DNA of 64,000 bases from Azolla caroliniana (lineage: Eukaryota > Plantae > Polypodiophyta). The translations under genes were made by a program, and so were the position numbers. The notes beneath the pieces were generated by a model, which was not told the DNA's origin, did not search any database, and saw only the letters and a program-made list of their open reading frames with translations. The stretch lies in NCBI GenBank assembly GCA_043228905.1, contig JBHGNT010000015.1, positions 16,306,001-16,370,000 on the forward strand, given 5' to 3'. Shown here one piece after another: positions 128 through 45,598 of the stretch (the first letter of the stretch is position 1; every line of letters begins with the position of its first letter).

Positions 128-537
128 TAGTTAGCTTGCCCTAGTGGTAAGTTGTTACACTATTGGCAATATATCTTGGGTTCGAAACCCAATTTCTCAC
201 ATGTTTATTACTCTATATCTATCTCTCAAATTTACTCGATGCCACTGTGGAATTAACATCTCTCTCTCTCTCTCTCATCATAATTAGCTTACCCTACTTG
301 TAAGTTGTTACACTATTAGCACTATATCTTGGGTTCGAAACCCAATTTCTCACCTGTCTATTACTCTACATCTATCTCTCAATTTTACTACCATTGTAGA
401 ATTAATCTCTCTCTCTCTCTCTCTCTCTCATAAGTTGAGACACTATTAGCACTATATATTGGGTTCGAAACCCAATTTCTCACCTGTCCATTACTCTACA
501 TCTATCTCTCAATTTTACTGGATGTCACTGTGGAATA
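128..537 (+). repeat. Three tandem ~130-150 bp units with a tRNA/SINE-like head, separated by (CT)n
   Basis: Unit TAAGTTGTTACACTATT(G/A)GCA.TATATCTTGGGTTCGAAACCCAATTTCTCAC...TTACTCTA.ATCTATCTCTCAA occurs three times. B-box-like GGGTTCGAAACCC at 178-190, 331-343 and 461-473; D-loop-like TAGTGGTAAG in copy 1. Confidence 0.65.
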
Positions 538-1077: not shown

Positions 1078-1240
1078 TTCTTTCTTTCTCTAGTTTCATC
1101 GGAAATTAACAAACTTACCCTAGTAGTGGTTAATGTTCGCGCCACACCTCTCTTTTACACCATAAAATATTTTCTTAACTTACATACATACATATTGATA
1201 TGCCATTGGTGGAATGTAAGGGGTTGAACTCATGACCTCT

Positions 1241-1340
1241 TTCTCTCTCTCTCTCTCTAGTATGTGTGTGTGTGTGTCTCTCTCTAGTATGTATGTGTGT
1301 GTGTGTCTCTCTCTCTAGTATGTGTGTGTGTGTGTGTTCT
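1241..1340. repeat. Compound microsatellite [(CT)n AGTAT (GT)n] x3
   Basis: Directly visible. Pure (TA)n runs also occur at ~1051-1077 and ~13202-13230. Confidence 0.9.
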
Positions 1341-15427: not shown

Positions 15428-15539
15428 GTAAGATTCTTCTGCACAAACACATACATACACATTCTCTCTCTGTGTGTCTCTTTATGTATTAGAATGAATG
15501 AGTGAATGAATGTGCTTGGTACACATTGATATGATTCAG

Positions 15540-16366
15540 ACCAAGGCTTGACCAAAGAAGGATTGTGGGATAAGATGCTGCGAGAGGCGGAGCATGTCGC
15601 GAGCGCGGAGCCTGTCCTATCGGATCGTCTCCACTCGGCCATACTATCCCATCCATCGCTGACCCATGCCCTAGCGCGCTGGCTCGCTGCCAAGCTCGCC
15701 GATTCATCCATGACTTCTCAATCACTAGGAGAGCTTTTCTATGAGGTCCTCCAATCCAGTGATGAGGTTATGGATGCTGTTGTGAAAGACATGGAAGGTG
15801 TTCTGGAAAGGGATCCAGCTTGCCCTTCCTACTGCCATTGCTTCCTCAACTTTAAAGGCTTCCAGGCATGCCAAGCCTACAGAATTGCGCATTCTCTGTG
15901 GGAGAAGGGGCGGCGGGAGGTCGCGTGGGCCCTGCAGAGCCGCGTCTCGGAGGTGCTCGGGGTGGACATCCACCCGGCCGCGAGGATCGGGAGGCGCGTG
16001 CTTCTGGACCATGCCACGGGGATCGTGATCGGGGAGACCGCGGTGGTGGGCGACAATGTGGCCATCTTGCACGGGGTCACATTGGGGGGCACCGGGAAGC
16101 ACGGAGGCGACCGGCACCCGAAGATCGGGAATGGCGTGCTCATCGGGGCCGGGGCCACCATCATCGGTAACATACGCGTGGGCGACGGCGCCAAGATCGG
16201 CACTGGGGCGGTGGTCCTCACGGACGTGCCGGCCATGGCCACGGCCGTCGGCATCCCCGCCCGCCTCGTGGGCGGGAAAGAAAGGCCCACCTTGCTCCGC
16301 GAGCATTCCAGCCACACCATGGACCATGTCGCCTATGTTCTCGATTGGTCGGACTACGTTATCTAG
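15540..16366 (+). CDS. SERAT: Serine O-acetyltransferase (SAT/CysE family), main exon; ~284 aa spliced
   Basis: Motifs ERDPAC, NFKGFQACQAYRIAH, VDIHPAARIG, DHATGIVIGETAVVG and VTLGGTGK..GDRHPKIG hexapeptide repeats. C-terminal WSDYVI tail is typical of plant SERATs. Confidence 0.97.
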
Positions 16367-31100: not shown

Positions 31101-31982
31101 GCTTGGTCATGTATGCATAGTGATGCGCCATGTACTCATTGTACCCGTACCGCGTAACAAGGTTCTTTTGGCGAGAAGACCGACGTAACTTGGTATTACC
31201 CGGTTTGGGGCCCTTCTTGGCCAGGTCGGACTTCATTCCTGAAGATCCGCCTTCATCTTTTCCGGAGTTGGTTTCGCACCAATCCGACTCAGCGTTGCCG
31301 GTTTCGTATTCCGGTATCTTCTTCTTCCCCTTCTCCTTGCGCGTGAACCGTCTCCTCGGTTCCTTGCGCGGGGAGAGCATGGTAGAGTCTCCACTACTCG
31401 CCGGTTCCTCATCCGACTGGTCATCTCGACTCAGCCACTCATTCGGTCCACTTAACCGAAATGAGATCGGACTCTCTTCTAGAGTGCCGACGTCTTTATC
31501 TTCTAACTGGACCAGTTCAGGCTCACTATGTCAAGACTGAGAGAGAAAAAGAGATAGAGAGATAATTGAAAGAGAATTATTATATTGAAGCGTAAAATGG
31601 ATTACAAAGAGTAGGCTACAAAATGGCATTGAACCAATTTAGGTTTGGGATGGGTGATAGATCCCTATTTATAAGTAATAGAGAACACTCTAGAATATTC
31701 TAGGTTATCCTATAATGTAGAGTAATCTAGAAGATCTCTAGAGTATTCTAGAAGGTTCTAGTGGTATAGAACACTCTAGAATATTCTAGGTCATTCTAGA
31801 ATGTAGAGTAATATAGAATATTCCTATGATATTAGATTTCATATTCTAGAGACTATACATATAAGAATATTAATACAATGGTTAAGGATTTGATATGTAT
31901 ACAACAAGGTCGTGGGTTCAAATCCTTTCGAGTCATAATGTGAGTGTCATGATCCTTTCAATGCATGATGTGAGTGTTATCA

Positions 31983-33620
31983 TCACACTATCCCCCTTCT
32001 TCGACGACACGTCTCACGGGTTGTAGGGTTTGTATTAGGACCAGGTTTAGAAGGATATTGGCGATGAAATGCATTGACGAGTTCTGTAGCATTGGAAAGA
32101 TTTGTGGCAGGTTCCCAAGTTCGATCATTGGGGGTATAGCCTAGCCAATCGACTAAGTAATACAGCTTGTTGCGCAGAATTTTAGAATCAAGAACGGCAT
32201 CAACTTCAAATTCAGGCCCATCCAAGAACTCGACAGGTGGGGGGGGTGTCGTAAGAAGGACCGGAATTGAACTTGTAGTATAAGGTTCCAAAAGGGATAC
32301 ATGAGACACCGGATGAAGATGCATGTGCGGAGGGAGGTCAAGACGAAATGCAACATCACTTATCTTACCAGTGATCATGTAAGGGCCAAAACGTTGGTAA
32401 TCCAATTTACTGCAAGGTTGAGTGGTGTTGATGTTGTGTTGGAGAAGCCATACATGATTCCCAATGCGGAACTTTTTTGAGGAGTCTAGACGATGACGAT
32501 CGGCAAGCCTCTTGTGTGTAAATTGAGCATCGTGAAAATTGTGGAGAATGTTAGCTTGAATTTCTTGGAGGCAACTACGAAGATCCTCGGCAACAGGGTT
32601 GGTAGGAACTTCCGGGTGCGCATTCATCGTCCACCTAGGATGACAACCCATATTTGCGTAAAATGGGGAATATCCTATAGAAGAATGGGTTGAGTTGTTG
32701 TAAGCGAATTCCACCAAGTGCAAAAAATCAACCCAATCATCTTGTTGATAGTTGATGAAACAACGAAGATATTGTTCCAATGTCTGGTTGGTACGCTCTG
32801 TTTGGCCATTTGTTTCAGGATGATAGCTCGAAGAAAGCTTAACTGAAATGTGGAGAAGTTTGAACAGGTGCTTCCAAAACTTTGAGATGAATTGTGGACC
32901 ACGATCACTAATAATATCATCAGGTAGACCATGATGCTTAAATACCTCCCGCAAAACGAGGTCAGCCGCCTCTTGACTAGTAATCGACTTTGTACATGGC
33001 AAGAAATGTGCTATTTTGGTAAATCGATCAACCACTGTGAGAATTGCATCAAAACCTTTTGAAACTGGGAGATCAGTAATGAAGTCCAAGGATATAGACT
33101 TCCAAGGAGTTTCCGGAATGGGAAGTGGCTGTAGTAAGCCATAGGGTCGGTGACGAGGATTCTTTGATCGACAACATATATCACAGCTCCGAACATACTC
33201 CTCAACAAAATGACGAAGGCGAGGCCACCAATAGTGTCGAGAAATTAATTCTAGAGTCTTGTGAACTCCAAAATGACCAGCCATTGGTGAGTCATGGCAA
33301 TGTTGCAAAACTTGTAGCCGTGGGGGACCATCAAGAACATACAATAAATTTTGTCGAAATAGAAAACCACCATGCCAATAGAACTGACAATAGTCATTAC
33401 GAGGATTTTTCGACTGTGAGCAAGAAGCACGATCCAGGACAATATGATCCAAAACATCCTTGGCGAAATCATCAGTGGCCATATGATCTCGAATGGAATC
33501 AAGAAGAGTGGAATTTTCAAGAGTTGTTATAGCGTTAACTACCATTAATCGTAATCGATTAGGACCCAAAAGGATTTGTTTTGGATGCTCAAATGCAGGT
33601 TCCCCTGGACGAAGTTCCAT
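31983..33620 (-). pseudogene. Gypsy C integrase (HHCC, DDE, GPY/F) plus chromodomain
   Basis: HDSPMAGHFG..CDICC, SLDFITDLP, SDRGPQF, YHPETNGQTER and GPY. FEVDAVLD..YYLVDWLGYTPNDRTWEP is a group-I-type chromodomain. Confidence 0.93.
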
Positions 33621-34274
33621 ATAAGAGCACCGAGAAAGAGCATCTGCTTTGCCTTACTGCATCCCAGGGCGATATATGATGCTAAAGTTGAAGTGAGTCA
33701 AAAATTGCGCCCACCGGGCTTGTCGCCGACTCAAGACTCGAACATTTTGGAAATAAGTCAGGTTCTTATGATCATTGTAGACAATGATCGGCTGAGAAGA
33801 ACCTTCTAAGAAATGTCGCCATTGTTGAAACGAATCCACGATTGCAAGAAGCTCTTTGTCATGGATGTCGTAGTTGATCTCTGCAGCTTCAAACTTTCGT
33901 GAATGAAAGGCGACAGGGTGTAGTTGTCCATCATCTCCAGTCTACGAGAGGACACTCCCTAGTGCAAAATCGGATGCATCGGCTTCGAGGATGAAGCGTT
34001 TTGTTGGGTCGACATGTGCTAAGATAGGTGCCGTTGTAAATGCTCATTTTAAGCTTTCGAATGCCTCGGCTGCATCTGAACTCCATATAAATGGTTGATC
34101 TTTATGTGTGAGCTAAGTAAGCGGAAGCACAACCTTGGAATAATCTTTAATAAATTTTCGATAAAAATTTGCAAACCCGAGAAAACATTGCACATCACGC
34201 ATTGAAAGGGGCGTTTGCCACTCTAAAATTGCTTGTACCTTCATGGGGTCCATAGCAATACCATTTGACGATAC

Positions 34275-37200
34275 TGTTGGGATTACGGTCCCTCCGGATG
34301 GGATGGTCAGATGTCCGGGAATCGGGAATGAAGACCCGAATGAGGAGTACCCGGTATCGGAACCGATTGATGAAGACCCGGTTTCGGATCCGGATGATGA
34401 AGACCCCGACTACGGAGCCGGATGACGAATGTACCCGGAGAGAGATCCGGATGCGGGGACATATTTGTGAATATGTTTGCCAAGGGCCCTCTAGGCTATA
34501 TTTGTAAATAGCCCGAAAGTCATATGTGTATAAATATGACTTAGGGCAAACAGTTTTGTAGTTGTTGCTCATTTTTCTGTTTTCCACTTAGAGGGAGCGA
34601 AGTGAGAGCAGCCGAGAGAGAGTGAGAGAGAGAGAGAAAGGAAGAGGTCGACGCCTCTGTGTAATACCGCCGCCTGTGGCGAGGACAGCGAGCTCAAGGT
34701 CGTCGCCTTGCAGCTCGCCATTGTACATTCCCTGCGTATAGTGATAGTTGGAGTCTTGCACTCCCGTGGTTTTTCCCGTCTAGGGTTTTCCACGCTAAAC
34801 CCTGTGCATTCGAGTCTCTCTCTGTGTTTTCGATTTACTGCTGCATTGACTCGTGTTTCCTCGGTTGTGGCCGAGAGGTGAAGGTTTTGAAAGCGTCAAT
34901 TTCTAACAATTTGGTATCAGAGCGACTGCAGTGCAGAAAATGGAAGGCGGCAGCAGCGGGCAGCCGGGGATGATGGTGCTGAATGCGCAGAACTACGCCG
35001 ACTGGAAGATAAAGATGGAGGATCTGCTCATTGTTCGGGACCTGTATGAACCGATCGACAGGTCGGAAATACCCAAGGGGGTACTTGAGACGGAATGGAG
35101 GCTTCTGAACCGGAAAGCCGTTGCAACCATTCGGCAATACGTCGACGTGAGCGTTCTACAACATGTGGCGAACGACACCAACGCATATGAGATGTGGCAG
35201 AAGCTGTCGGGCCTCTACGAGAGGAAGAATGCGTTGAACCGGACCTCCCTGATGAGGAAGATAGTGAACCTCAAGTACCGGGACGGCGAGAGTATGGTGG
35301 AACACGTAAGCACGTTCATGGGATTCGTGAACCAGCTTGCGGCGATCAAGTTCCCGTTGGAGGATGCAATGCAACCCATCATGCTGATGTGTACATTGCC
35401 GGAAAGCTGGGAGAACTTGGTGGTGACTCTCAGTACCTCCTGCACCGAAGATAACTTGTCCCTACAAACGGTAAAGACAAGCATTTTGAACGAAGAAGCG
35501 CGTCGGAGAGATAAAGAACCGGCCTCCGATCCGAAGATGCTGCTTACCGAATCGGATCGGGGAAGACAACGGAACCGGAGTCCGCAAAGACGGGAGAAGT
35601 CGGGGACCCGGTCGCAGTCAAGAGGAAGGCCCACATGCTTCCACTGTGGGAAGCCGGGGCACTTCCGAAAGAATTGTCGGCATTACCGAAAAGACAATGG
35701 AGCCGACGACACCGATTCGAAGAAGTCTTCGGAACGGAACGGTGCTTACCGGGGAGCCACGGACCGGAACGGTTCGGATCAGCGAGGGCAGGACCGGAAA
35801 GGAATGACGACACTCGCGGCAAGTGAAGAGGAGATCATGCTCATCACCGAAGAAGGTGAACTAAAAATTGCCGGCGATGAGACTACCTGGGTGGTCGATT
35901 CCGGAGCGTCGTTCCACCTGACCCCGGAAAGAAGATACTTCTCATCCTACACAGCCGGTGAGCATGGCTGTGTTCGGATGGGAAATGACGGTACGTGCCG
36001 GATTGCCGGCATAGGAGACGTGTGGTTGACAACCTCGACCGGATGCAAAATGTTGCTGAAGGATGTCCGACACGTTCCGGAGGTTCGATTGAACCTGATT
36101 TCGGCCGGGAGGCTAGACGATGAAGGCTACACAGGTAGCATCCGGAACTGCGTAATGAAGTTCAGCAAGGGGAGCCTGATAGTGGCTCGGGCCCGGAAAG
36201 TCAACACACTGTACCTTATGAATGCCTGGTTGTGTCCGGAGGAGTTGAACGTGGCAGCCGACACTGCCGGTGAGCTGTGGCACAAGAGACTGTGCCACAT
36301 GAGTGAGAAGGGGATGAAGAGGCTTGCAGAAGACAACCTTATTCCAGTGAAGCATGTGCACCTGGAGAAGTGCACCGATTGCCTGGCCGGTAAGCAGAAC
36401 CGAACCTCCTTCCACTCAAGGCCACCGACGAGACGTAGCGCACCATTGGAGTTGGTGCACACTGACGTGTGTCAAGTAGAAACGAAGTCACATGGCGGAG
36501 CCCAGTACTTCGTGACATTCATTGATGACCACAGCCGGAAGCTGTGGACGGCACCGTTGAAGACAAAGGACCAAGTGTTGTGCGTCTTCAAAGAACTCCA
36601 CGCGAGAGTGGAAAGGGAATCCGGCAAGAAGCTGAAAGCGATACGAGCGGATAACGGAGGGGAATACCGGGGGCAGTTCGAGGAGTACTGTCGCTCGAAG
36701 GGAATCCGGCTCGAGTTTACTGTGCCGAAGACGCCGAAACTGAACAGGCTGGCCGAGAGGATGAACCGGACCATAATGGAGAGGGTCCGGAGTATACTGG
36801 CGCATGCGAAATTACCCAAGGGGTTTTGGGCTGAGGCAATGTCGACGACGACATACGTGATAAACAGATCACCCTCAGTACCTTTGGACGGAGACACGCC
36901 GCAGAGAGTGTGAACCGGTAGGGAAGTATCCTACCGGCATCTGAAGGTGTTCGGGTGTCTCGCATATGTGCATGTGGCAAAGGACCGGAGAGGAAAGCTA
37001 GATCCAAAGACCCGGCCATGCATATTCCTCGGTTACGGCGATGACGAGTTCGGCTACCGAGTATGGGACCCGGTCAACAAAAAGATATTCCGGAGTCGTG
37101 ATATCATCTTCATGGAGGACAAGACACTCGCCGACTGGGAGTCGGAGAAGAAGATGAAGAGCTCCAAGTCGACCGGTGAGGATCAACTCTACGAGGAGCA

Positions 37201-39657
37201 GTCCCGACCGGCAAGGGACCGGTTAGCACTCGAGGATCCGGCCGAAGACGGTGAAGAAACAGAACCGGCCGAGGAAGATGAAACTGATACCGGAACCGGC
37301 CCCGATCCCGAAATGGATTCGGATGAAGAGGAAACGGAGGAGCCGGTTACCGAAGCTCCGGAACGGAGATATCCTCTAAGAGAGAGAAGGGCCCCCCGGA
37401 GATTTCCGGAACCAGAGCACGTGCTGCTAACCGACGAGGGGGAGCCGGAGAGTTTTGAAGAAGCAAAGCTTGACACCCATAGCCGCAGGTGGTTAAGTGC
37501 CATGCAGGAGGAGATGGATTCCCTGCATGAGAACCACACATATGAACTTGTGGAGTTGCCGAAAGGAAAGCGGGCACTTCGAAACAAGTGGGTGTTCAAG
37601 CTGAAACCGGGAGATGCCGGAAACCCCCCGAGATACAAAGCCAGGATCGTGGTGAAGGGGTTCCAGCAGAAGAAGGGCGTCGACTTCGACGAGATATTTG
37701 CCCCGGTAGTGAAGATGACCTCCATCCGGACGGTGCTGAGCATAGCGGCAAGCATGGACCTCGAGGTAGAACAGATGGACGTGAAGACGGCATTCCTTCA
37801 CGGTGACCTCGAAGAAGAGATCTACATGCAGCAACCGGAAGGATTCGAGAAGAAAGGGAAGGAGCACCTGGTATGCCGGTTGAAGAAGAGCCTTTACGGA
37901 CTGAAGCAGGCTCCCCGGCAATGGTACCGGAAGTTCGACTCTTTCATGACCGACGAAGGGTACCACAAAACGCAGTCCGATCACTGCGTGTTTGTGAAGA
38001 AGTTCGAAGGAGGAGACTTTCTAATACTCCTCCTGTACGTGGACGACATGTTGATCGTCGGACGGGACCAGGTCAAGATACGGATGCTGAAGAAAGCGCT
38101 TCACCGAACCTTCTCAATGAAGGACCTGGGTCCGGCGAGGCAAATATTAGGGATGCACATCATCCGGGACCGGAAGAAGAAGCAGTTGTGGCTGTCACAG
38201 GAGAAGTACGTGACAAAGGTGCTTCACCGGTTCAACATGTCGGAAGCAAGACCGGTCGGGTCAACCCTCCCGGCAAACTGCAAGTTGTCCAGCAAGCAAA
38301 GCCCCAAGACAAAGGCTGAGAAGGAGGACATGATGAAAGTACCATATGCCTCTGCCGTCGGAAGCTTGATGTACGCAATGGTGTGTACAAGACCGGACAT
38401 AGGATATGCAGTCGGAGTGGTGAGCCGGTACATGAGCAATCCCGACAAAGAGCACTGGAACGCGGCCAAGTGGATACTCCGATACCTGAAGGGCACGGCA
38501 AACATGTGCCTCTGATTCGGCTCCGGTAAGCCCGAACTCGACGGCTTTACCGATTCGGATATGTCGGCTGATGCAGATACCAGCCGGTCCACATCAGGGT
38601 ATGTGATGACGTATGCAGGGGGAGCTGTTTCGTGGCAGTCGAGGCTGCAGAAGACGGTTGCGTTGTCAACCACGGAGGCGGAGTACATGGCGGCTGTTGA
38701 AGCCGGCAAGGAAATAATATGGATGAAGGACTTCATTAGAGAGCTCGGTATCCGGCAGGAGGAGTACCGACTCTACTGCGACAGTCAGAGTGCCATCCAC
38801 CTTGCGAAGAATGCGGCCTATCACTCCCGGACGAAGCACATCCAGCGAAGATATCACTGGATCCGGGAAAGGATAGAAGACCAGGAGTTCGTGCTGACGA
38901 AGATCCACACGGACGAGAACGAGTCAGATATGCTGACCAAAGTGCTCACACCCGACAAGCTGGAAGCGTGCCGGAAGAGGGTCGGACTGGAAAGACATCC
39001 CATGCCGAAGTGAAGGGGGAGTTTGTTGGGATTACGGTCCCTCCGGATGGGATGGTCAGATGTCCGGGAATCGGGAATGAAGACCCGAATGAGGAGTACC
39101 CGGTATCGGAACCGGATGATGAAGACCCGGTTTCGGATCCGGATGATGAAGACCCCGACTACGGAGCCGGATGACGAATGTACCCGGAGAGAGATCCGGA
39201 TGCGGGGACATATTTGTGAATATGTTTGCCAAGGGCCCTCTAGGCTATATTTGTAAATAGCCCGAAAGTCATATGTGTATAAATATGACTTAGGGCAAAC
39301 AGTTTTGTAGTTGTTGCTCATTTTTCTGTTTTCCACTTAGAGGGAGCGAAGTGAGAGCAGCCGAGAGAGAGTGAGAGAGAGAGAGAAAGGAAGAGGTCGA
39401 CGCCTCTGTGTAATACCGCCGCCTGTGGCGAGGACAGCGAACTCAAGGTCGTCGCCTTGCAGCTCGCCATTGTACATTCCCTGCGTATAGTGATAGTTGG
39501 AGTCTTGCACTCCCATGGTTTTTCCCGTCTAGGGTTTTCCACGCTAAACCCTGTGCATTCGAGTCTCTCTCTGTGTTTTCGATTTACTGCTGCATTGACT
39601 CGTGTTTCCTCGGTTGTGGCCGAGAGGTGAAGGTTTTGAAAGCGTCAATTTCTAACA
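34275..39657 (+). mobile_element. Copia element E (Tnt1/Tork-like), full length and young, inserted in Gypsy C RT
   Basis: 634-bp LTRs 34275-34908 and 39024-39657 with about 4 visible differences; TSD GATAC; PBS TGGTATCAGAGC 34912-34923; PPT GAAGGGGGAG before the 3' LTR. Confidence 0.97.
34940..39013 (+). pseudogene. Copia E gag-pol polyprotein, single frame with two premature TGA stops
   Basis: ORFs 34931-36913, 36947-38515 and 38561-39013 share one frame; stops at 36911-36913 and 38513-38515. CCHC knuckle, DSGA, integrase, YVDD and RNase H motifs present. Confidence 0.93.
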
Positions 39658-39709
39658 GATACAACATACCCCAAAAATTCCACTTGATTCTGGCCAAAAC
39701 TACACTTTT

Positions 39710-41017
39710 CTAATTTTGCGTAGAGACCATATTCTCGGAGTCGACGCAGTACCTGACGAACATGTTCTCATGCTCCTCTTGGGTCTTTGAGTAGATTAAA
39801 ATATCATCTAGGTAAAATATAGTGAAGATATCAAGAAAATCTCGAAAAATATCGTTCACCATATGTTGGAAAACAGCAGGTGCATTCGTGAGACCGAATG
39901 GCATCACTGTATACTCAAAATGTCCATAGCCAGTGCGGAAAGCTGTCTTCCATTCATCCCTCGAGCGAATCCGAACTAGATTATATGCTCCGCGAAGGTC
40001 CAACTTCGTGAAATATTTTGCACCACTGAGACGTTCCAAAAGATTCGGGATTAATGGTAGAGCATATCTATTCCGGATAGTCACTTTGTTTAGCCCTCGA
40101 TAATCCACGACCAACCGAAGAGTCCCATTCTTCTTCTTAACGAAGAAGATAGGTGCACCAGCAGGGGATCTAGAATGCCGAATGAATCCGTTTGCCAGAT
40201 TCTCATCAATATATTCCCGCAAAGTCTCTAGCTCTACAGGGGAGAGATTATAAATTGGGCCCCATGGAGGTTCTTTCCTTGGTTGTAAGTCAATAGGGTA
40301 GTCGTATGGCCGATGCTCTGGCAATGTATTGGCCTTCACCTTATCAAAGACATCTGAAAAGTCCTTGTATTTCTCTGGTAGTTTAATGTCCACTTCACGT
40401 GAAGTGGATGATGGAGTTGGTATTATTGCGAAGACGAACATGGCCTCGTTCCCCCCTTCCTCCCGCAACTGTCGTAAAGAGATGGGTGATAACTCCGGGG
40501 ATCTATTATCACATGTAGGAGAGAGGGATGCGGGGTTTGTGCTTTTTTCCTGGGTCTCCTCAATTGTTCTTTTCATCCAATCAATCTTCGGGTTATGGAG
40601 TTCAAACCAAGGGAGACCTAGAACTATTGGGTGTTCCAGACTACGAATAATGTTGAAAGAGATTATGCTTGCCAAATTGCCAAGAACTATCCTAATTGGC
40701 TCGGACTCCTCGACTATATCTCCTGATGCTATGGGACGTCCATCAATGACTCCTACGGCTGCTTGGCTGGGAAGCTTATTCAAGAGGATGTTTTGTGACA
40801 AGGCAAATTCACGATCCATGAAACAAGAGTTGGCTCCAGAATCTAGAAGGGCAGAGGCTAGGACTCGATGACATGTAGATGTGGTAAGCTTGACTTGTGC
40901 TGAAAAAACTCGACTCACTTGATTTGATGAAATGGAACCACGACTAGGAACTAACTCTACATAGCTAGGATGGTCCAACCAAATGGCTCCTATTTTGGCC
41001 GGACTTACTCGTTTAAC
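39710..41017 (-). pseudogene. Gypsy C pol: aspartic protease and reverse transcriptase (continues past Copia E into RNase H at ~33620-34270)
   Basis: [35 protein letters not shown] and YLDD; frameshift near 39760. Confidence 0.93.
40973..41017 (-). promoter_or_regulatory. Predicted -1 ribosomal frameshift signal at the gag/pol junction
   Basis: G_TTA_AAC (41011-41017), a 6-nt spacer containing the gag stop, and an 11-bp stem (40994-41004 / 40973-40983). The -1 frame enters the pol ORF. Confidence 0.75.
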
Positions 41018-42124
41018 ACATCCTCTAATTGACTCAAGACATCGAATCTATTCTCATGGCATGGACTATGAGGCTTATTTATGTTATTAGAAGTAACAAT
41101 AGAACTCGATGTAGGGTTTTCATGGGCACTTGGTATACTTGACGCTTAGGTTTATGTGGACAATTTACAGCTATATGTCCTGGATCGCCACAATATAGGC
41201 AGAGGTGATGTGCTCGACGTCGTTGCTTCTTAGCATCTAATAACGGCCCACGACGTTGTGTTGACTCTATTTCCATCAGAGTTGGGCCATCCCTTGCAAT
41301 GGGTCTAGAAACTTGTGGAGGCGTTGCGACTAGGAAGCGTAAGTCAGCTCAGGTTGGCAGCGTAACATTTGTTGGCGCTCAGAACGTCGCTCAAATAGGC
41401 GATTATCACATCGCACAACTCGACTAATGGCTTCTGTAAGTGACTTCGGATCTTCAGGGAAAGTAAGAAGAAGATCTTTGACATCATTTCTCAAAACTTG
41501 ACGGAATTGATCCATTAAGGCCGCCTCATCCCAAGGGATATCGCATGCCAAGAGACGGAAATCGGCTACATAAGCTGACGCGGGACGATCTCCTTGTTGG
41601 AGCCTTCGAATCTTGTTTATCGTTGTCCTAGTGCTGTCGGTGTCTCCGAAACTAGCTTGAAACTCTTTAACAAATGCCTCGAAATCCTCCAGCAATGGTG
41701 ATTTCTTCTCGAGAAGTGGTGTGAACCATGCAAACGCCGTACCGCATAGCAAAGTTCCCACTAATCCCACACGAGCTGCATCAGTTGGATACCGATTGGG
41801 ATGTAGCTGAATAACTAGACGAACTTGATTCAAAAAGCCTCGAAATAAAGACCTCGTACCATCAAACTTGGCTGGGAGGCTGATCTTTGGCTCTCTAGGG
41901 GAGTTCTGAGCCCCCGACGCTTGCTCTCGTAATGACAATATAGTCGCCTCGAGTTGATGAACCCGCTGTGATAACTCTTCATATTGTTGAGCTTTTTCGG
42001 CGCTCACGTGTTGTAGATCTGCAAGTAGCCTTTGATTCTCATGCTCTAATGCCACAAATTTATTCGTGGGCATGTCGAGCTCAGAATGAACACGCATGTA
42101 TTCTTCTTTGCTCACGGACTCCAT
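41005..42124 (-). pseudogene. Gypsy C gag (coiled coil, capsid, CCHC knuckle), disrupted
   Basis: PKISLPAKFDG, LQQGDRPASAY..F and CLYCGDPGHIAVNC; ends [15 protein letters not shown]. Confidence 0.88.
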
Positions 42125-42198
42125 AGCTTACGAGGGGAGAGGAGAAGGAAGAAGAGAACTTGTTAGGGTTTGTGGAAGACGAAGAGATGAAAGAAAAA

Positions 42199-42210
42199 AA
42201 ATTGGTTCAA
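42199..42210 (-). promoter_or_regulatory. Self-priming type primer-binding site
   Basis: TTGAACCAATTT lies 2 nt after the 5' LTR, lacks TGG, and is the exact complement of LTR positions 42325-42336. Confidence 0.8.
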
Positions 42211-42361
42211 ACTGTCAAGACTGAGAGAGAAAAAGAGAGAGAAAAACAGATAGAGAGATAATTGAAAGAGAATTATTATATTGAAGCGTAAAATGGATTA
42301 CAAAGAGTAGGCTACAAAATGGTGTTGAACCAATTTAGGTTTGGGATGGGTGATAGATCCC

Positions 42362-42550
42362 TATTTATAAGTAATAGAGAACACTCTAGAATATTCTAGG
42401 TTATCCTAGAATGTAGAGTAATCTAGAAGATCTCTACAGTATTCTAGAAGGTTCTAGTGGTATAGAACACTCTAGAATATTCTAGGTCATTCTAGAATGT
42501 AGAGTAATATAGAATATTCCTATGATATTAGATTTCATATTCTAGAGACT
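42362..42550 (-). promoter_or_regulatory. LTR promoter: TATA box plus heat-shock-element array (duplicated at ~31666-31850)
   Basis: TATAAATA at 42362-42369 (minus strand). Upstream alternating nGAAn/nTTCn units include a perfect ATTCTAGAAGGTTCT at 42441-42455 (31745-31759 in the other LTR). Confidence 0.7.
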
Positions 42551-45498
42551 ATACATATAAGAATATTAATACAATGGTTAAGGATTTGATATGTGTACAA
42601 CAAGGTCGTGGGTTCAAATCCTTTCGAGTCATAATGTGAGTGTCATGATCCTTTGGATGCATGATGTGAGTGTTATCATGACACACTAGCCTCATCCTCT
42701 GGTATTGGGTCGGGGTCGGAAGTCGGAGTTGGTAAGGCATACGATGATGCCATCTCATCAAACTCAACATCCCGGCTAACTTGGACCTACTTCGTCCGGG
42801 GGTTATAACATTTATACCCCTTTTGCTCATGCGAGTAACCGACTAGGATGCATTTTTCCAACTTTGCATCCAACTTCCTCCGCTTCTCATCCGGCATATG
42901 CACATATGCAATGCCACAAAATATCCGAAGGTGTCGCAAATTCGGCTTGCGGCCGAAATACAACTCATGCGCGGACACCTTGTCACCGATCCGGTTTTGA
43001 ATATAGACGGTCATCTGGACCGCCTCCGCCCAGTAGAAATGGGGCATGCTCTTCTCTTCCAGCATTGCCCTTGCCGCGTTGATAAGCAAGCGGTTCTTCC
43101 TCTCAGCTACACCGTTTTGTTCCGGTGTGTATCTGCAACTGAACTCTCGCCGAATTCCTTTTTGCTGTAGATAACTATTGAATTGGCCAGAAAAATATTC
43201 TTTTTCGCCATCCAATAGCATGCACTTGATCTTTCTCTCTGATTCCCGCTGCACCATGCTTTGGAGGTTCCGGAAACAGTCTAAGACTTCTCTCTTTCGC
43301 TCAATGAGGTAGATCCATGTGTGCCGGTTGTAGTCGTCGATGAAGGAGACGAAATATCGACTCCCGCCAAGACTTACGTTCTGTACCGGTTCCCATACAT
43401 CCAAATGAATAAGGTCGAGCTTGTTACGGCTACCGTTTCGCTCGGTGGGGAATGGAAGCTGGTGTTGCTTCCCAAGTTGGCAGGCTTCACATACATGGGC
43501 CTTCCGGCCATTGAACTTCGGCAAACCAAAAACAACTTGTTTCGTTTGCAAGTCTTGAAGCTGTCGGTAATTGACGTGGCCGATCCGCTTGTGCCAGAGA
43601 TCAATATCTGATTCAATCTTCTGTCCTTTGACAAACAACGCGGTGCCGACATCATTGGTCTTGAGGATGAACATCCTCCCGTCTCTGCGCCCTTGCGTAA
43701 TGATTTGGCCCTCTTCCTCGATGAAGCACCCGAGGTGCGTAAACCGCACCTACATCCCCTGGTCGACAATCTATCCAACCGACACCAGGTTCTTCGTGAT
43801 AATCGGAATGTGTAATACGTTCATTAGCTTCCCCCTCTGTCCGACGTGGCTCAAAGGGACTTCTCCGATATGCACGATTCGGTGAGGAGTGTCGTCTCCG
43901 GTTTCGACAACTCCCGGTTGTTCTGGTTTCTCTAGGAAGGAGAACCACTCTTTATGGCTCGTCATGTGATTTGATGCACCGGAATCAACATACCATACTT
44001 CCTCCGATTTGGAAGTGGTCTTCTTCATCGAATTTGCCTCATGCTTCATCACCAAGGTTGGCCCCTTATCGGTCTTCCCGGTTCCGGATCCTTTTGATCC
44101 TTGTGCGTAATGCGAGCTTTGCCGGTTCTCCCGACTGGTTTTGCCGGATCCAGATTTGTCCGAATCGGCGCGCTTCTTCCAGCAGTCGCTTTCTCTATGG
44201 CCCTTTTTGCCATAGTACCAGCATTCCGTGGTGGATTTTTCTTGTCGGCCTCCAACGCCGCCTTGACTCCCCCTGCTTGTGGAAGTCTTGGAACTGTTGT
44301 CGGCACGTTCTCTGTGCCTTCTTTCCTGCTCTTGTCGGCCGCCTCCAGTGTGTGCCGACCCACCTCGTCCCCCACACCCACGGGGCCTATCCACCTCCGT
44401 GTACAATATCCGGTTGTCCGATTGAGTGGTCTTGGACCCACTCGCGTGGTTTTCTTCGACCATCAGCATCGATTGCAAGTCCAAGAAGGTCGGTGGTTTC
44501 TCGAGGGTGCAGATCGTTGTCCGGATTGGCCCGTACCTTTGCACTAGACCACCAAGGCAGATTTGTACCATTTCGTCTTTGTCCACTGTCACGTTAATGG
44601 ACCCAAGCACGTCGCAACTCTCCTTTATTTTGGTGGTGTAGTCCGTAACCGACATATGTCTTTGTCGGATGTTGTTCAACTCTTGCCGGAGCTGCAACTT
44701 ACGGGTTGTGGTACTTGCGGCGAAAATCTTACGCAGATTTTCCCAAGCCTCCTTTGGCGTCTTTGCATCCCTAATGTAGCCGAGCATCTAGCACACAGGA
44801 CGCGAGACAATATAATACTCAGTCGCTCCTTGCTCCCATACCGGGAAGTCCTTGTGTCCAGGCTCTAGTGCTACCTCATTCGTTCCTTCCACAAAACTCC
44901 AATACCCATGCCCCAGTAGGTACTGGTGCATTTTGTATGATCAAGATGTGTAGTTGCTCCGGTCAAGCTTCTCTATAGGAAGCGAACTCGACATACCTCT
45001 GTCCATATTTTATTTTTTCTCTGTCTACTGTTCTCTTCTCACAACTTGTAGGGTTTGTCTTGCGAAAGCGAATGTCGGCTGTAGAGGTCTTCAACCCTCG
45101 CACTCTGATACCACATTAAAACATATGTGTGGAAGTGTAAGACAACAGCTTGGTTGCGTAGCTGTAGAGAGAAAGAGAGAGAGAGAATAATACACAAAAT
45201 ACAGAGAGTACTCGGGAGAGACAGAGAGAGCAGAACAATAATCTAAATTCAGAAATTATATCAACACTCTATACATGAAACGTGCTCAACAACACTATTT
45301 TTACAAGTCCTGAGAGGACTGACAGAAGTACCACGTACTTCAATGCTCACTCGAGCGTCTGGCACTGACTACGAGACTATTAACTCCCTAGTAGTCTAGC
45401 TGCTATTAGGCTTCCGGTTCCTTATGGATTCGGCTAACCGGTTCCCCAGCTCACCAGGTCACCAATTCAGCTCATCCTTTCGGATGCCGATCCGGCTA

Positions 45499-45598
45499 NN
45501 NNNNNNNNNNNNNNNNNNNNNNNNNNNNNNNNNNNNNNNNNNNNNNNNNNNNNNNNNNNNNNNNNNNNNNNNNNNNNNNNNNNNNNNNNNNNNNNNNN
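45499..45598. other. Assembly gap (100 N)
   Basis: Run of N. Confidence 1.

Follow-up and report, generated by a model that had tools for sequence, protein, structure and literature searches.

The locus analysed here raises the question of why a long terminal repeat (LTR) retrotransposon with a predicted RNA polymerase II (Pol II) promoter of its own should carry the signature of a tRNA gene promoter, in reverse orientation, at the outer edge of both LTRs. The element is a chromovirus-type Ty3/Gypsy retrotransposon lying in a 64,000-nucleotide (nt) stretch of the Azolla caroliniana assembly GCA_043228905.1 (contig JBHGNT010000015.1, positions 16,306,001 to 16,370,000, forward strand), hereafter called the window, whose numbering is used throughout. 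Judged by sequence comparison, the boxes at the U3 tip of the LTRs most likely represent a selected type-2 RNA polymerase III (Pol III) promoter or TFIIIC site, and neither a tRNA nor a passenger. The features in question are the following.

42567..42577, plus strand (second copy 31871-31881): A-box-like stretch that corresponds to tRNA positions 8-19 and is antisense to the element
42603..42607, plus strand (second copy 31907-31911): tRNA variable-loop stretch AGGTC, positions 44-48
42611..42621, plus strand (second copy 31915-31925): strict B box, positions 52-62
42520..42559, plus strand: AT-rich tract inward of the A box, the predicted landing region of TFIIIB
42580..42623, unstranded: 10-bp inverted repeat (42580-42589 / 42614-42623), overlapping the B box

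The original prediction had placed A and B boxes in both LTRs, and the corresponding letters were located at 42570-42621 and 31874-31925. With T8 at 42567 and G18-G19 at 42576-42577, the predicted A-box, variable-loop and B-box signature at tRNA-like spacing proved to keep an exact tRNA register in both LTRs, and the distance of 35 nt between G18 and the B-box start equals that of the plant-type tRNA-Asn gene at one of the loci described below (L021). The boxes thus combine an A-box and a B-box consensus at tRNA spacing, as expected of a type-2 Pol III promoter. When the LTR was dinucleotide-shuffled 20,000 times, a strict B box turned up in 0.135% of the shuffles, the A-box GG together with the B box in 0.025%, and this pair plus the GGTC stretch in none, the patterns having been picked after the sequence had been seen.

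How widely the boxes occur was determined by a metagenome scan with an alignment of the integrase end, from which the best 80 of 388 confirmed stretches were kept, corresponding to 76 loci with integrase-end identities of 42-90%. A usable LTR start was present in 63 of these loci, and 13 were dropped (four of the dropped loci, L029, L050, L052 and L053, show the box by eye, and a box profile recovers L029, L052 and L053). By eye, the usable loci were split into 51 clade loci, analysed together with the window (n=52), and 12 distant loci (42-47%), which form a separate branch in a later tree; integrase ends of the box-clade relatives from metagenome contigs are 44-100% identical. Within the first 130 nt of U3, the exact antisense B-box core was found in 42 of the 52 clade loci, compared to 1.7 expected from shuffles, and in 18/25 clusters at 80% (the clusters being approximate). 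The combined A+B pattern was present in 35/52 clade loci (0.07 expected), the B-box core on the sense strand in a single one (1/52), and neither the core nor the A+B pattern in any of the 12 outgroup loci (0/12). In the control region (U3 131-260), 7 B-core matches were obtained in 46 loci, all 7 of which are the palindromic self-primer described below and none a second box. Five of the 10 clade loci that miss the exact core (L012, L057, L061, L062 and L064) still score with the box profile; L028, L047, L048, L076 and L080 give no score with it.

Mapped on a tree of 67 rows, the box label requires 3 changes as compared to 12.5 in shuffles, in a tree with a midpoint root only, from which 10/77 rows were omitted for stops and in which kin share labels. 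The box occurs on either side of the deepest division within the box-bearing rows, and the pattern is consistent with one gain and two losses (L047 and L048), since the deepest box-bearing branch (L050 and L053) also has the box; L053 reaches a profile E of 1e-4 though outside the training set, and L050, which has no profile score, was labelled by eye. A search of IMG/VR returned distant relatives (28-33%) or none. Antisense boxes were also seen at second LTR tips on the same contigs (L056 1170-1260, L041 500-600, L032 815-911, L019 453-513 and L023 2945-2978), some second tips belonging to other families.

A comparison of the boxes with flanking U3, set beforehand, showed them to be far better conserved across diverged families. 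Columns were counted in 21 hand-picked representatives chosen for having a B box, a selection that leaves the A box, the 44-48 stretch and the presence count free of circularity. Mean pairwise identity among these representatives amounts to 0.67 for the A box, 0.82 for positions 44-48 and 0.77 for the B box, compared to 0.45 for the spacer, 0.40 upstream and 0.41 downstream. Similarly, 14/55 columns of the box region are 90% identical, with 7 gap openings, versus 3/73 columns and 53 gap openings in the next 56 nt inward. In the A box, T8 (18/21), a purine at 9 (21/21), A14 (20/21), a purine at 15 (20/21), T16 (20/21), G18 (21/21) and G19 (20/21) are kept; in the variable loop, A44 (20/21), G46, T47 and a pyrimidine at 48 (21/21 each); and on the B-box side, position 58 is invariant, a pyrimidine stands at 60 in 20/21 and C61 in 17/21. 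Position 57 is only ever A (7/21) or G (14/21), position 59 takes all four bases, and positions 49-51, 59 and 63-65 vary freely. Of the 35 anchored rows, 32 have a GG-to-B-box distance of 34 or 35 nt, and in all 35 the B box ends 10-62 nt from the LTR tip. In tRNA genes the A and B boxes are read by TFIIIC (PMC13578239), and the columns kept here are, by their letters, the tRNA positions so read and equal to the promoter consensus.

To what extent this could reflect slow decay is indicated by the four-fold sites in the integrase end, whose mean identity over 171 pairs is 0.43 (2/21 representatives omitted), with saturation at 0.30. A neutral relic of an old SINE (short interspersed nuclear element) or tRNA capture would agree with the presence of tRNA-derived SINE-like heads in the same window, with the loss of the box in some families and with the lack of excess conservation within a family. 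It is difficult to reconcile with nearly invariant promoter columns next to neighbouring U3 sequence full of insertions and deletions, with four-fold sites near saturation and with the retention of the CpG in the B box in 14/21 representatives. Presence, identity and four-fold-site data thus already largely refute a neutral relic, which we regard as very improbable.

The orientation of the boxes and the nature of their carrier are defined by the following features of the element.

31529..42683, minus strand: chromovirus-type Ty3/Gypsy element, on LTR, domain and target-duplication evidence
31524-31528 and 42684-42688: 5-bp target duplication CACTA on both flanks of the chromovirus
42213..42683, minus strand: 5' LTR, 471 nt, TG...CA
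31529..31987, minus strand: 3' LTR, 459 nt
31988-32003: polypurine tract, directly before the 3' LTR on the minus strand
41330..42127, minus strand: gag open frame (PF03732, PF19259)
39710..41047, minus strand: pol fragment with reverse transcriptase (PF00078)
31983..33653, minus strand: integrase, SH3 and chromodomain frame, its end reaching into the LTR tip (PF17921, PF00665, PF24626, PF00385)
42363..42369, minus strand: TATA box, predicted Pol II promoter of the element
42376..42550, unstranded: array of heat-shock-element (HSE)-like nGAAn repeats in U3
42325..42336, minus strand: predicted self-primer, located at the 5' end of the RNA; its 12 nt are the complement of 42199-42210, immediately internal to the 5' LTR

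The two LTRs are nearly identical; the window copy is defective, its pol being interrupted and a Copia element nested inside. As had been claimed, the boxes run opposite to the element (gag, reverse transcriptase, integrase and chromodomain on the minus strand, boxes on the plus strand) and lie between the LTR end (tip at 42683) and the HSE array (~42376-42550). The chromodomain attributed to the element was recovered as a PF00385 match at the integrase end (E 5e-14). Frameshifting, also proposed, agrees with the intact relatives, in which gag and pol frames overlap with a -1 offset wherever the contig includes the junction. All 12 long relatives examined (12/12) have long open pol frames of 1053-1235 codons plus gag frames, and are therefore autonomous families. 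A general tie between the boxes and the HSE array did not hold: an HSE pair is absent from the available U3 of 6/21 box-bearing representatives (one with only 193 nt), so that the box is independent of the array and an obligatory link to heat-shock elements was ruled out.

That the element does without a tRNA primer had been anticipated as well, and is borne out by the predicted self-priming match. A 12-nt match directly after the LTR occurs in 10 of 46 loci (at least 500 nt), representing 6 families, and three primer variants each match their own binding site, with both sides changing across related families. The chromovirus clade is accordingly predicted to be self-primed, not tRNA-primed, on account of this complementarity with compensatory changes. 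The self-primer (42321-42336 on the minus strand; 31625-31640) itself fits the strict B-box pattern on the sense strand, resembles a tRNA T loop and, in the L023 group, belongs to a palindrome; it covaries with its own binding site and not with the U3 box, and pairing between self-primer and box was ruled out on these grounds.

Does the box region still encode a tRNA, or any other structured RNA? ARAGORN reported no tRNA gene in the window, and Rfam gave no tRNA match in 42200-42700 (E up to 10) and no 5S match at the box region, so that scoring as a tRNA, suggested beforehand as a check, was negative on the boxes. When folded as a cloverleaf, the representatives are 48% paired overall, compared to 46% for shuffled sequences and 49% after a shift by one column (individual stems: acceptor 35%, D 60%, anticodon 38%, T 68%), and RNAalifold found no consensus pairs across them. 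A hairpin of spacer and T arm, seen in the family of the window and a few others, has z < -2 in 5/21 representatives on the antisense strand and 7/21 on the element strand. The tRNA cloverleaf is lost and there is no shared RNA fold; a functional tRNA was thus rejected on ARAGORN, Rfam and the lost cloverleaf, and a clade-wide hairpin because z < -2 is confined to few families and RNAalifold gives no pairs.

The surroundings of the boxes include the AT-rich upstream region of a type-2 Pol III promoter: the 40 nt inward of the A box are 83% AT as compared to 66% further in, and are the richer of the two in 16/18 representatives. A run of four T residues (T4) follows the B box within 60 nt in 14/21 representatives, versus 6.1 in shuffles and 2.3 in downstream windows; it precedes the LTR tip in 8/21 (3.4 expected), some T4 runs lying in the polypurine-tract region. 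RNA-labelled sequencing runs yielded 2-3 U3-spanning contigs each, which run into other sequence (one run being probably DNA) and give neither strand nor ends, and they were not used as evidence.

Such a layout would also be expected if the Pol III antisense RNA itself mattered, tuning element expression or the small-RNA load, with 3' LTR transcripts entering the polypurine tract and the chromodomain end, and 5' LTR transcripts entering the flank. The complete promoter layout, the AT-rich upstream tract, the T4 enrichment and the hairpins in 5-7/21 families are compatible with this explanation, as is the precedent of foamy-virus LTRs, which yield Pol III small RNAs (PMC3993851). Moreover, on the element strand the pairing of arms from the same family exceeds that of arms exchanged between families (permutation p 0.004, kin uncorrected); on the antisense strand, however, the arm-swap test is not significant (p 0.16), no fold is shared, the spacer is scarcely conserved (0.45) and the terminator is found anywhere between 0 and 1026 nt. 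Since neither fold nor terminator is fixed, a Pol III product is unlikely to be the selected entity, and we regard a role of the antisense RNA as fairly unlikely. The boxes cannot make the genomic RNA of the element either, because they point outwards. The outward orientation, together with the unfixed fold and terminator, therefore favours a role at the level of the DNA.

A different kind of constraint would act on the element RNA, whose U3 could pair with the D and T loops of a packaged host tRNA and so assist in strand transfer, in dimerisation or in packaging, a role put forward for HIV-1 U3. The antisense tRNA image in U3 matches the HIV-1 proposal (PMC9757044), and the kept stretch 44-61 and the fixed spacing exceed minimal boxes. 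Yet free variation is seen at positions 49-51, 59 and 63-65, where pairing with any given tRNA would take place, and self-priming elements have no primer-site tRNA to bridge the ends. The self-primer does contain a similar GGTTCA word, but shows no covariation with the box: L020, L026, L030 and L038 have G57 in the box and A in the primer, and the L035 group has a changed primer with an unchanged box. Pairing with a tRNA is, in our view, distinctly unlikely.

The position of the box close to the LTR end could alternatively point to integration, either because TFIIIC or TFIIIB near the cDNA end helps the reaction or because the LTR serves as a landing pad for Pol III-targeting elements. The short distance between B box and U3 tip in all 35 anchored rows would suit this explanation, as would a truncated relative situated ~140 nt from a tRNA-Thr gene (L021). 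On the other hand, the box-to-tip distance is not fixed, no insertion is found upstream of the box in either window LTR, and ARAGORN detects tRNA genes in only 1/55 loci, namely L021; we consider an integration role quite improbable. The L021 contig (coverage 26) carries two intact tRNA genes, Asn-GTT at 552-627 and Thr-AGT at 831-906, ~140 nt from the truncated relative; neither could be named as parent of the box, the identity to both being 22-33/55.

That boxes in reversed orientation are kept near silent-site saturation in elements with Pol II promoters indicates that they have another role. We consider it probable that they form a working TFIIIC/Pol III site, with selection acting on the DNA sequence as read by TFIIIC. 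TFIIIC would read the tRNA-derived A and B boxes at the outer U3 edge and position TFIIIB on the AT-rich tract that separates the A box from the enhancer; Pol III may then fire outwards, giving a short or variable RNA whose sequence would be of no importance. Whether or not short Pol III transcription accompanies them, TFIIIC and TFIIIB would keep the outer LTR edge open. The most likely purpose of the outward-pointing boxes, at about even odds, would be that of a chromatin barrier between the flank and the element's Pol II enhancer and promoter. The benefit would lie in a nucleosome-poor, silencing-resistant edge that limits the advance of silencing from flanking DNA over this enhancer and promoter, and that each new copy would take to its insertion site. 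Chromoviral chromodomains are thought to steer elements into heterochromatin, and a resistant edge could be useful to an element so steered; the window copy sits in a nest of Copia elements. The boxes would most likely descend from a tRNA-derived SINE head or a tRNA gene that the ancestral LTR captured once, long ago. The broadest form of the proposal, that an entire clade of autonomous plant chromoviruses bears its own outward Pol III/TFIIIC barrier at both ends, derived from a captured tRNA promoter, is made tentatively, as somewhat less than an even prospect.

Several observations weigh against the barrier and, in part, against the promoter itself. The upstream CAA motif of land-plant tRNA genes is present in only 2/21 representatives, although this motif raises efficiency and is not absolutely required (PMC13578239). 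No T4 run occurs for 254-1026 nt in 7/21 representatives, the family of the window included. The conservation of positions 44-48 and the fixed spacing of 34-35 nt exceed what TFIIIC is known to need, and the former is left unexplained by a TFIIIC site. Columns 53-58 are circular, because the representatives were chosen and anchored on the B box. L047 (contig coverage 110) and L048 lie inside the clade and have unrelated U3 sequences with no box, from which it follows that the box is dispensable; nearly all clade loci, moreover, come from one assembly series, which limits the view of host breadth. Finally, conservation is visible only between families. Within the family of the window, which is highly repeated in the Logan contigs sampled (four DNA runs, three organisms), 7/58 positions of the box region are variable as compared to 20/~190 in the HSE array. 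None of the 11 B-box positions is variable at 3% or more among the rows listed from the four DNA runs; this comparison has no power, because only ~1/10 of U3 positions vary and 0/11 would be expected ~3 times in 10. The replaced U3 segments of L047 (3590-3737; very short, at high coverage) and L048 (1505-2018) constitute a natural control.

Among known systems, compared here on the accessible sections of the sources cited, the closest precedent is Helenus (TRIMp3), one of the miniature terminal-repeat retrotransposons (TRIMs), in which a tRNA-like sequence with conserved A and B boxes lies inside the LTR (PMC10886601). The parallel chosen in the original prediction, Cassandra, is 5S-derived and less close than the tRNA-derived Helenus. 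Helenus elements are non-coding, 311-1263 bp long and tRNA-primed, whereas the window clade has full-length gag-pol, a TATA-type promoter and self-priming; Helenus is moreover proposed to make its own RNA from the Pol III promoter, and the boxes of the window clade point away from the element. The window clade is thus not a Helenus member, being coding and self-primed, with antisense boxes 10-62 nt from the outer tip. Autonomous partners of Helenus are expected to use Pol II LTRs, and part of a tRNA is said to occur in 'not a few LTRs' of Repbase, of which only TRIMs were followed (PMC10886601). Cassandra and Ajax TRIMs likewise show that a Pol III internal promoter can be long conserved in plant LTRs (PMC7215508; PMC10886601), but theirs is 5S-derived, with boxes A and C, and the elements are non-autonomous and transcribed from it; the register found here is of tRNA type, without 5S-derived A/C boxes.

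The element resembles the Tcn1 chromoviruses of seed-free plants in its chromodomain integrase, separate gag and pol frames and self-priming (PMC6317226; PMC2864245), as well as in LTRs of ~440-470 bp. A seed-free plant is also the probable host, in view of a gene in the window whose best named matches are in ferns by a small margin; the clade tree contains no named Tcn1 reference, and the likeness is one of features. For Tcn1, no LTR Pol III box is mentioned in the accessible text, SM-Tcn1 being given TATA and CAAT boxes only (PMC6317226; PMC2864245). In retroviruses, the U3-R of HIV-1 has a tRNA-Lys3-like sequence, i.e. a tRNA image in U3 through which the genomic RNA is complementary to tRNA (PMC9757044), but that image is tied to one primer tRNA, while the window clade uses no tRNA primer and keeps only promoter positions. 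Foamy viruses carry Pol III microRNA cassettes, A/B-box units in the LTR of an autonomous retroelement (PMC3993851), yet with defined hairpins, terminators and tested products, as opposed to the lack of both a shared fold and a fixed terminator here.

With respect to the proposed mode of action, Pol III complexes and tRNA genes act as heterochromatin barriers in yeast (PMC13578239); the tRNA-gene/TFIIIC barriers there would work in the same way, but are host loci and do not reside on a mobile element, and such barriers are stated as not described in plants (PMC13578239). No description of A/B boxes in the LTRs of Tcn1 or other autonomous plant elements was found in the open-access full-text literature, although the supplements of PMC10886601 and PMC6317226 may list such LTRs; the accessible parts of PMC3601003 and PMC10946416 added nothing on LTR A/B boxes. 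Autonomous plant LTR retrotransposons have thus apparently not been described with this arrangement; LTRs with Pol III boxes are on record for short non-autonomous elements, which use them for their own transcription. If true, the proposal would give plants their first Pol III barrier, one that is also a portable means against silencing and seeds many TFIIIC sites through the host genome; should the barrier reading hold, it would also show how heterochromatin-dwelling retrotransposons remain expressible and supply a compact plant insulator. These LTRs lend themselves to testing: the cassette measures 55 nt, natural variants and sister families without the box exist, and each genome has many copies. 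They may also inflate counts of tRNA pseudogenes or SINEs.

Further observations concern the LTR tip and the remainder of the window. The U3 tip (42620-42683) contains a tandem duplication of ~30 nt that recreates a second LTR-end-like motif, and many copies in the sequencing runs stop after the first unit, near 42646. SINE-like heads of tRNA origin, with A/B boxes, lie among CT repeats at 539-590 and 1211-1242 (both minus strand) and in three tandem units near 135-190, 290-345 and 430-475 (plus strand); their scores with the LTR-box profile are weak, and they could be related to the sequence that was captured. Several Copia elements form a nest around and inside the chromovirus (28000-63000), in whose LTRs no strict B box was found, and an assembly gap of 100 N interrupts the nest at 45499-45598. 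Between 6424 and 11892 (plus strand), exons with apparent von Willebrand A-type segments and a long coiled-coil frame were recognised by eye, the two long frames of this gene giving no Pfam match. An intronless serine acetyltransferase gene occupies 15530-16366 (plus strand), its best named matches being from ferns (62-65%), narrowly ahead of seed plants (61-62%).

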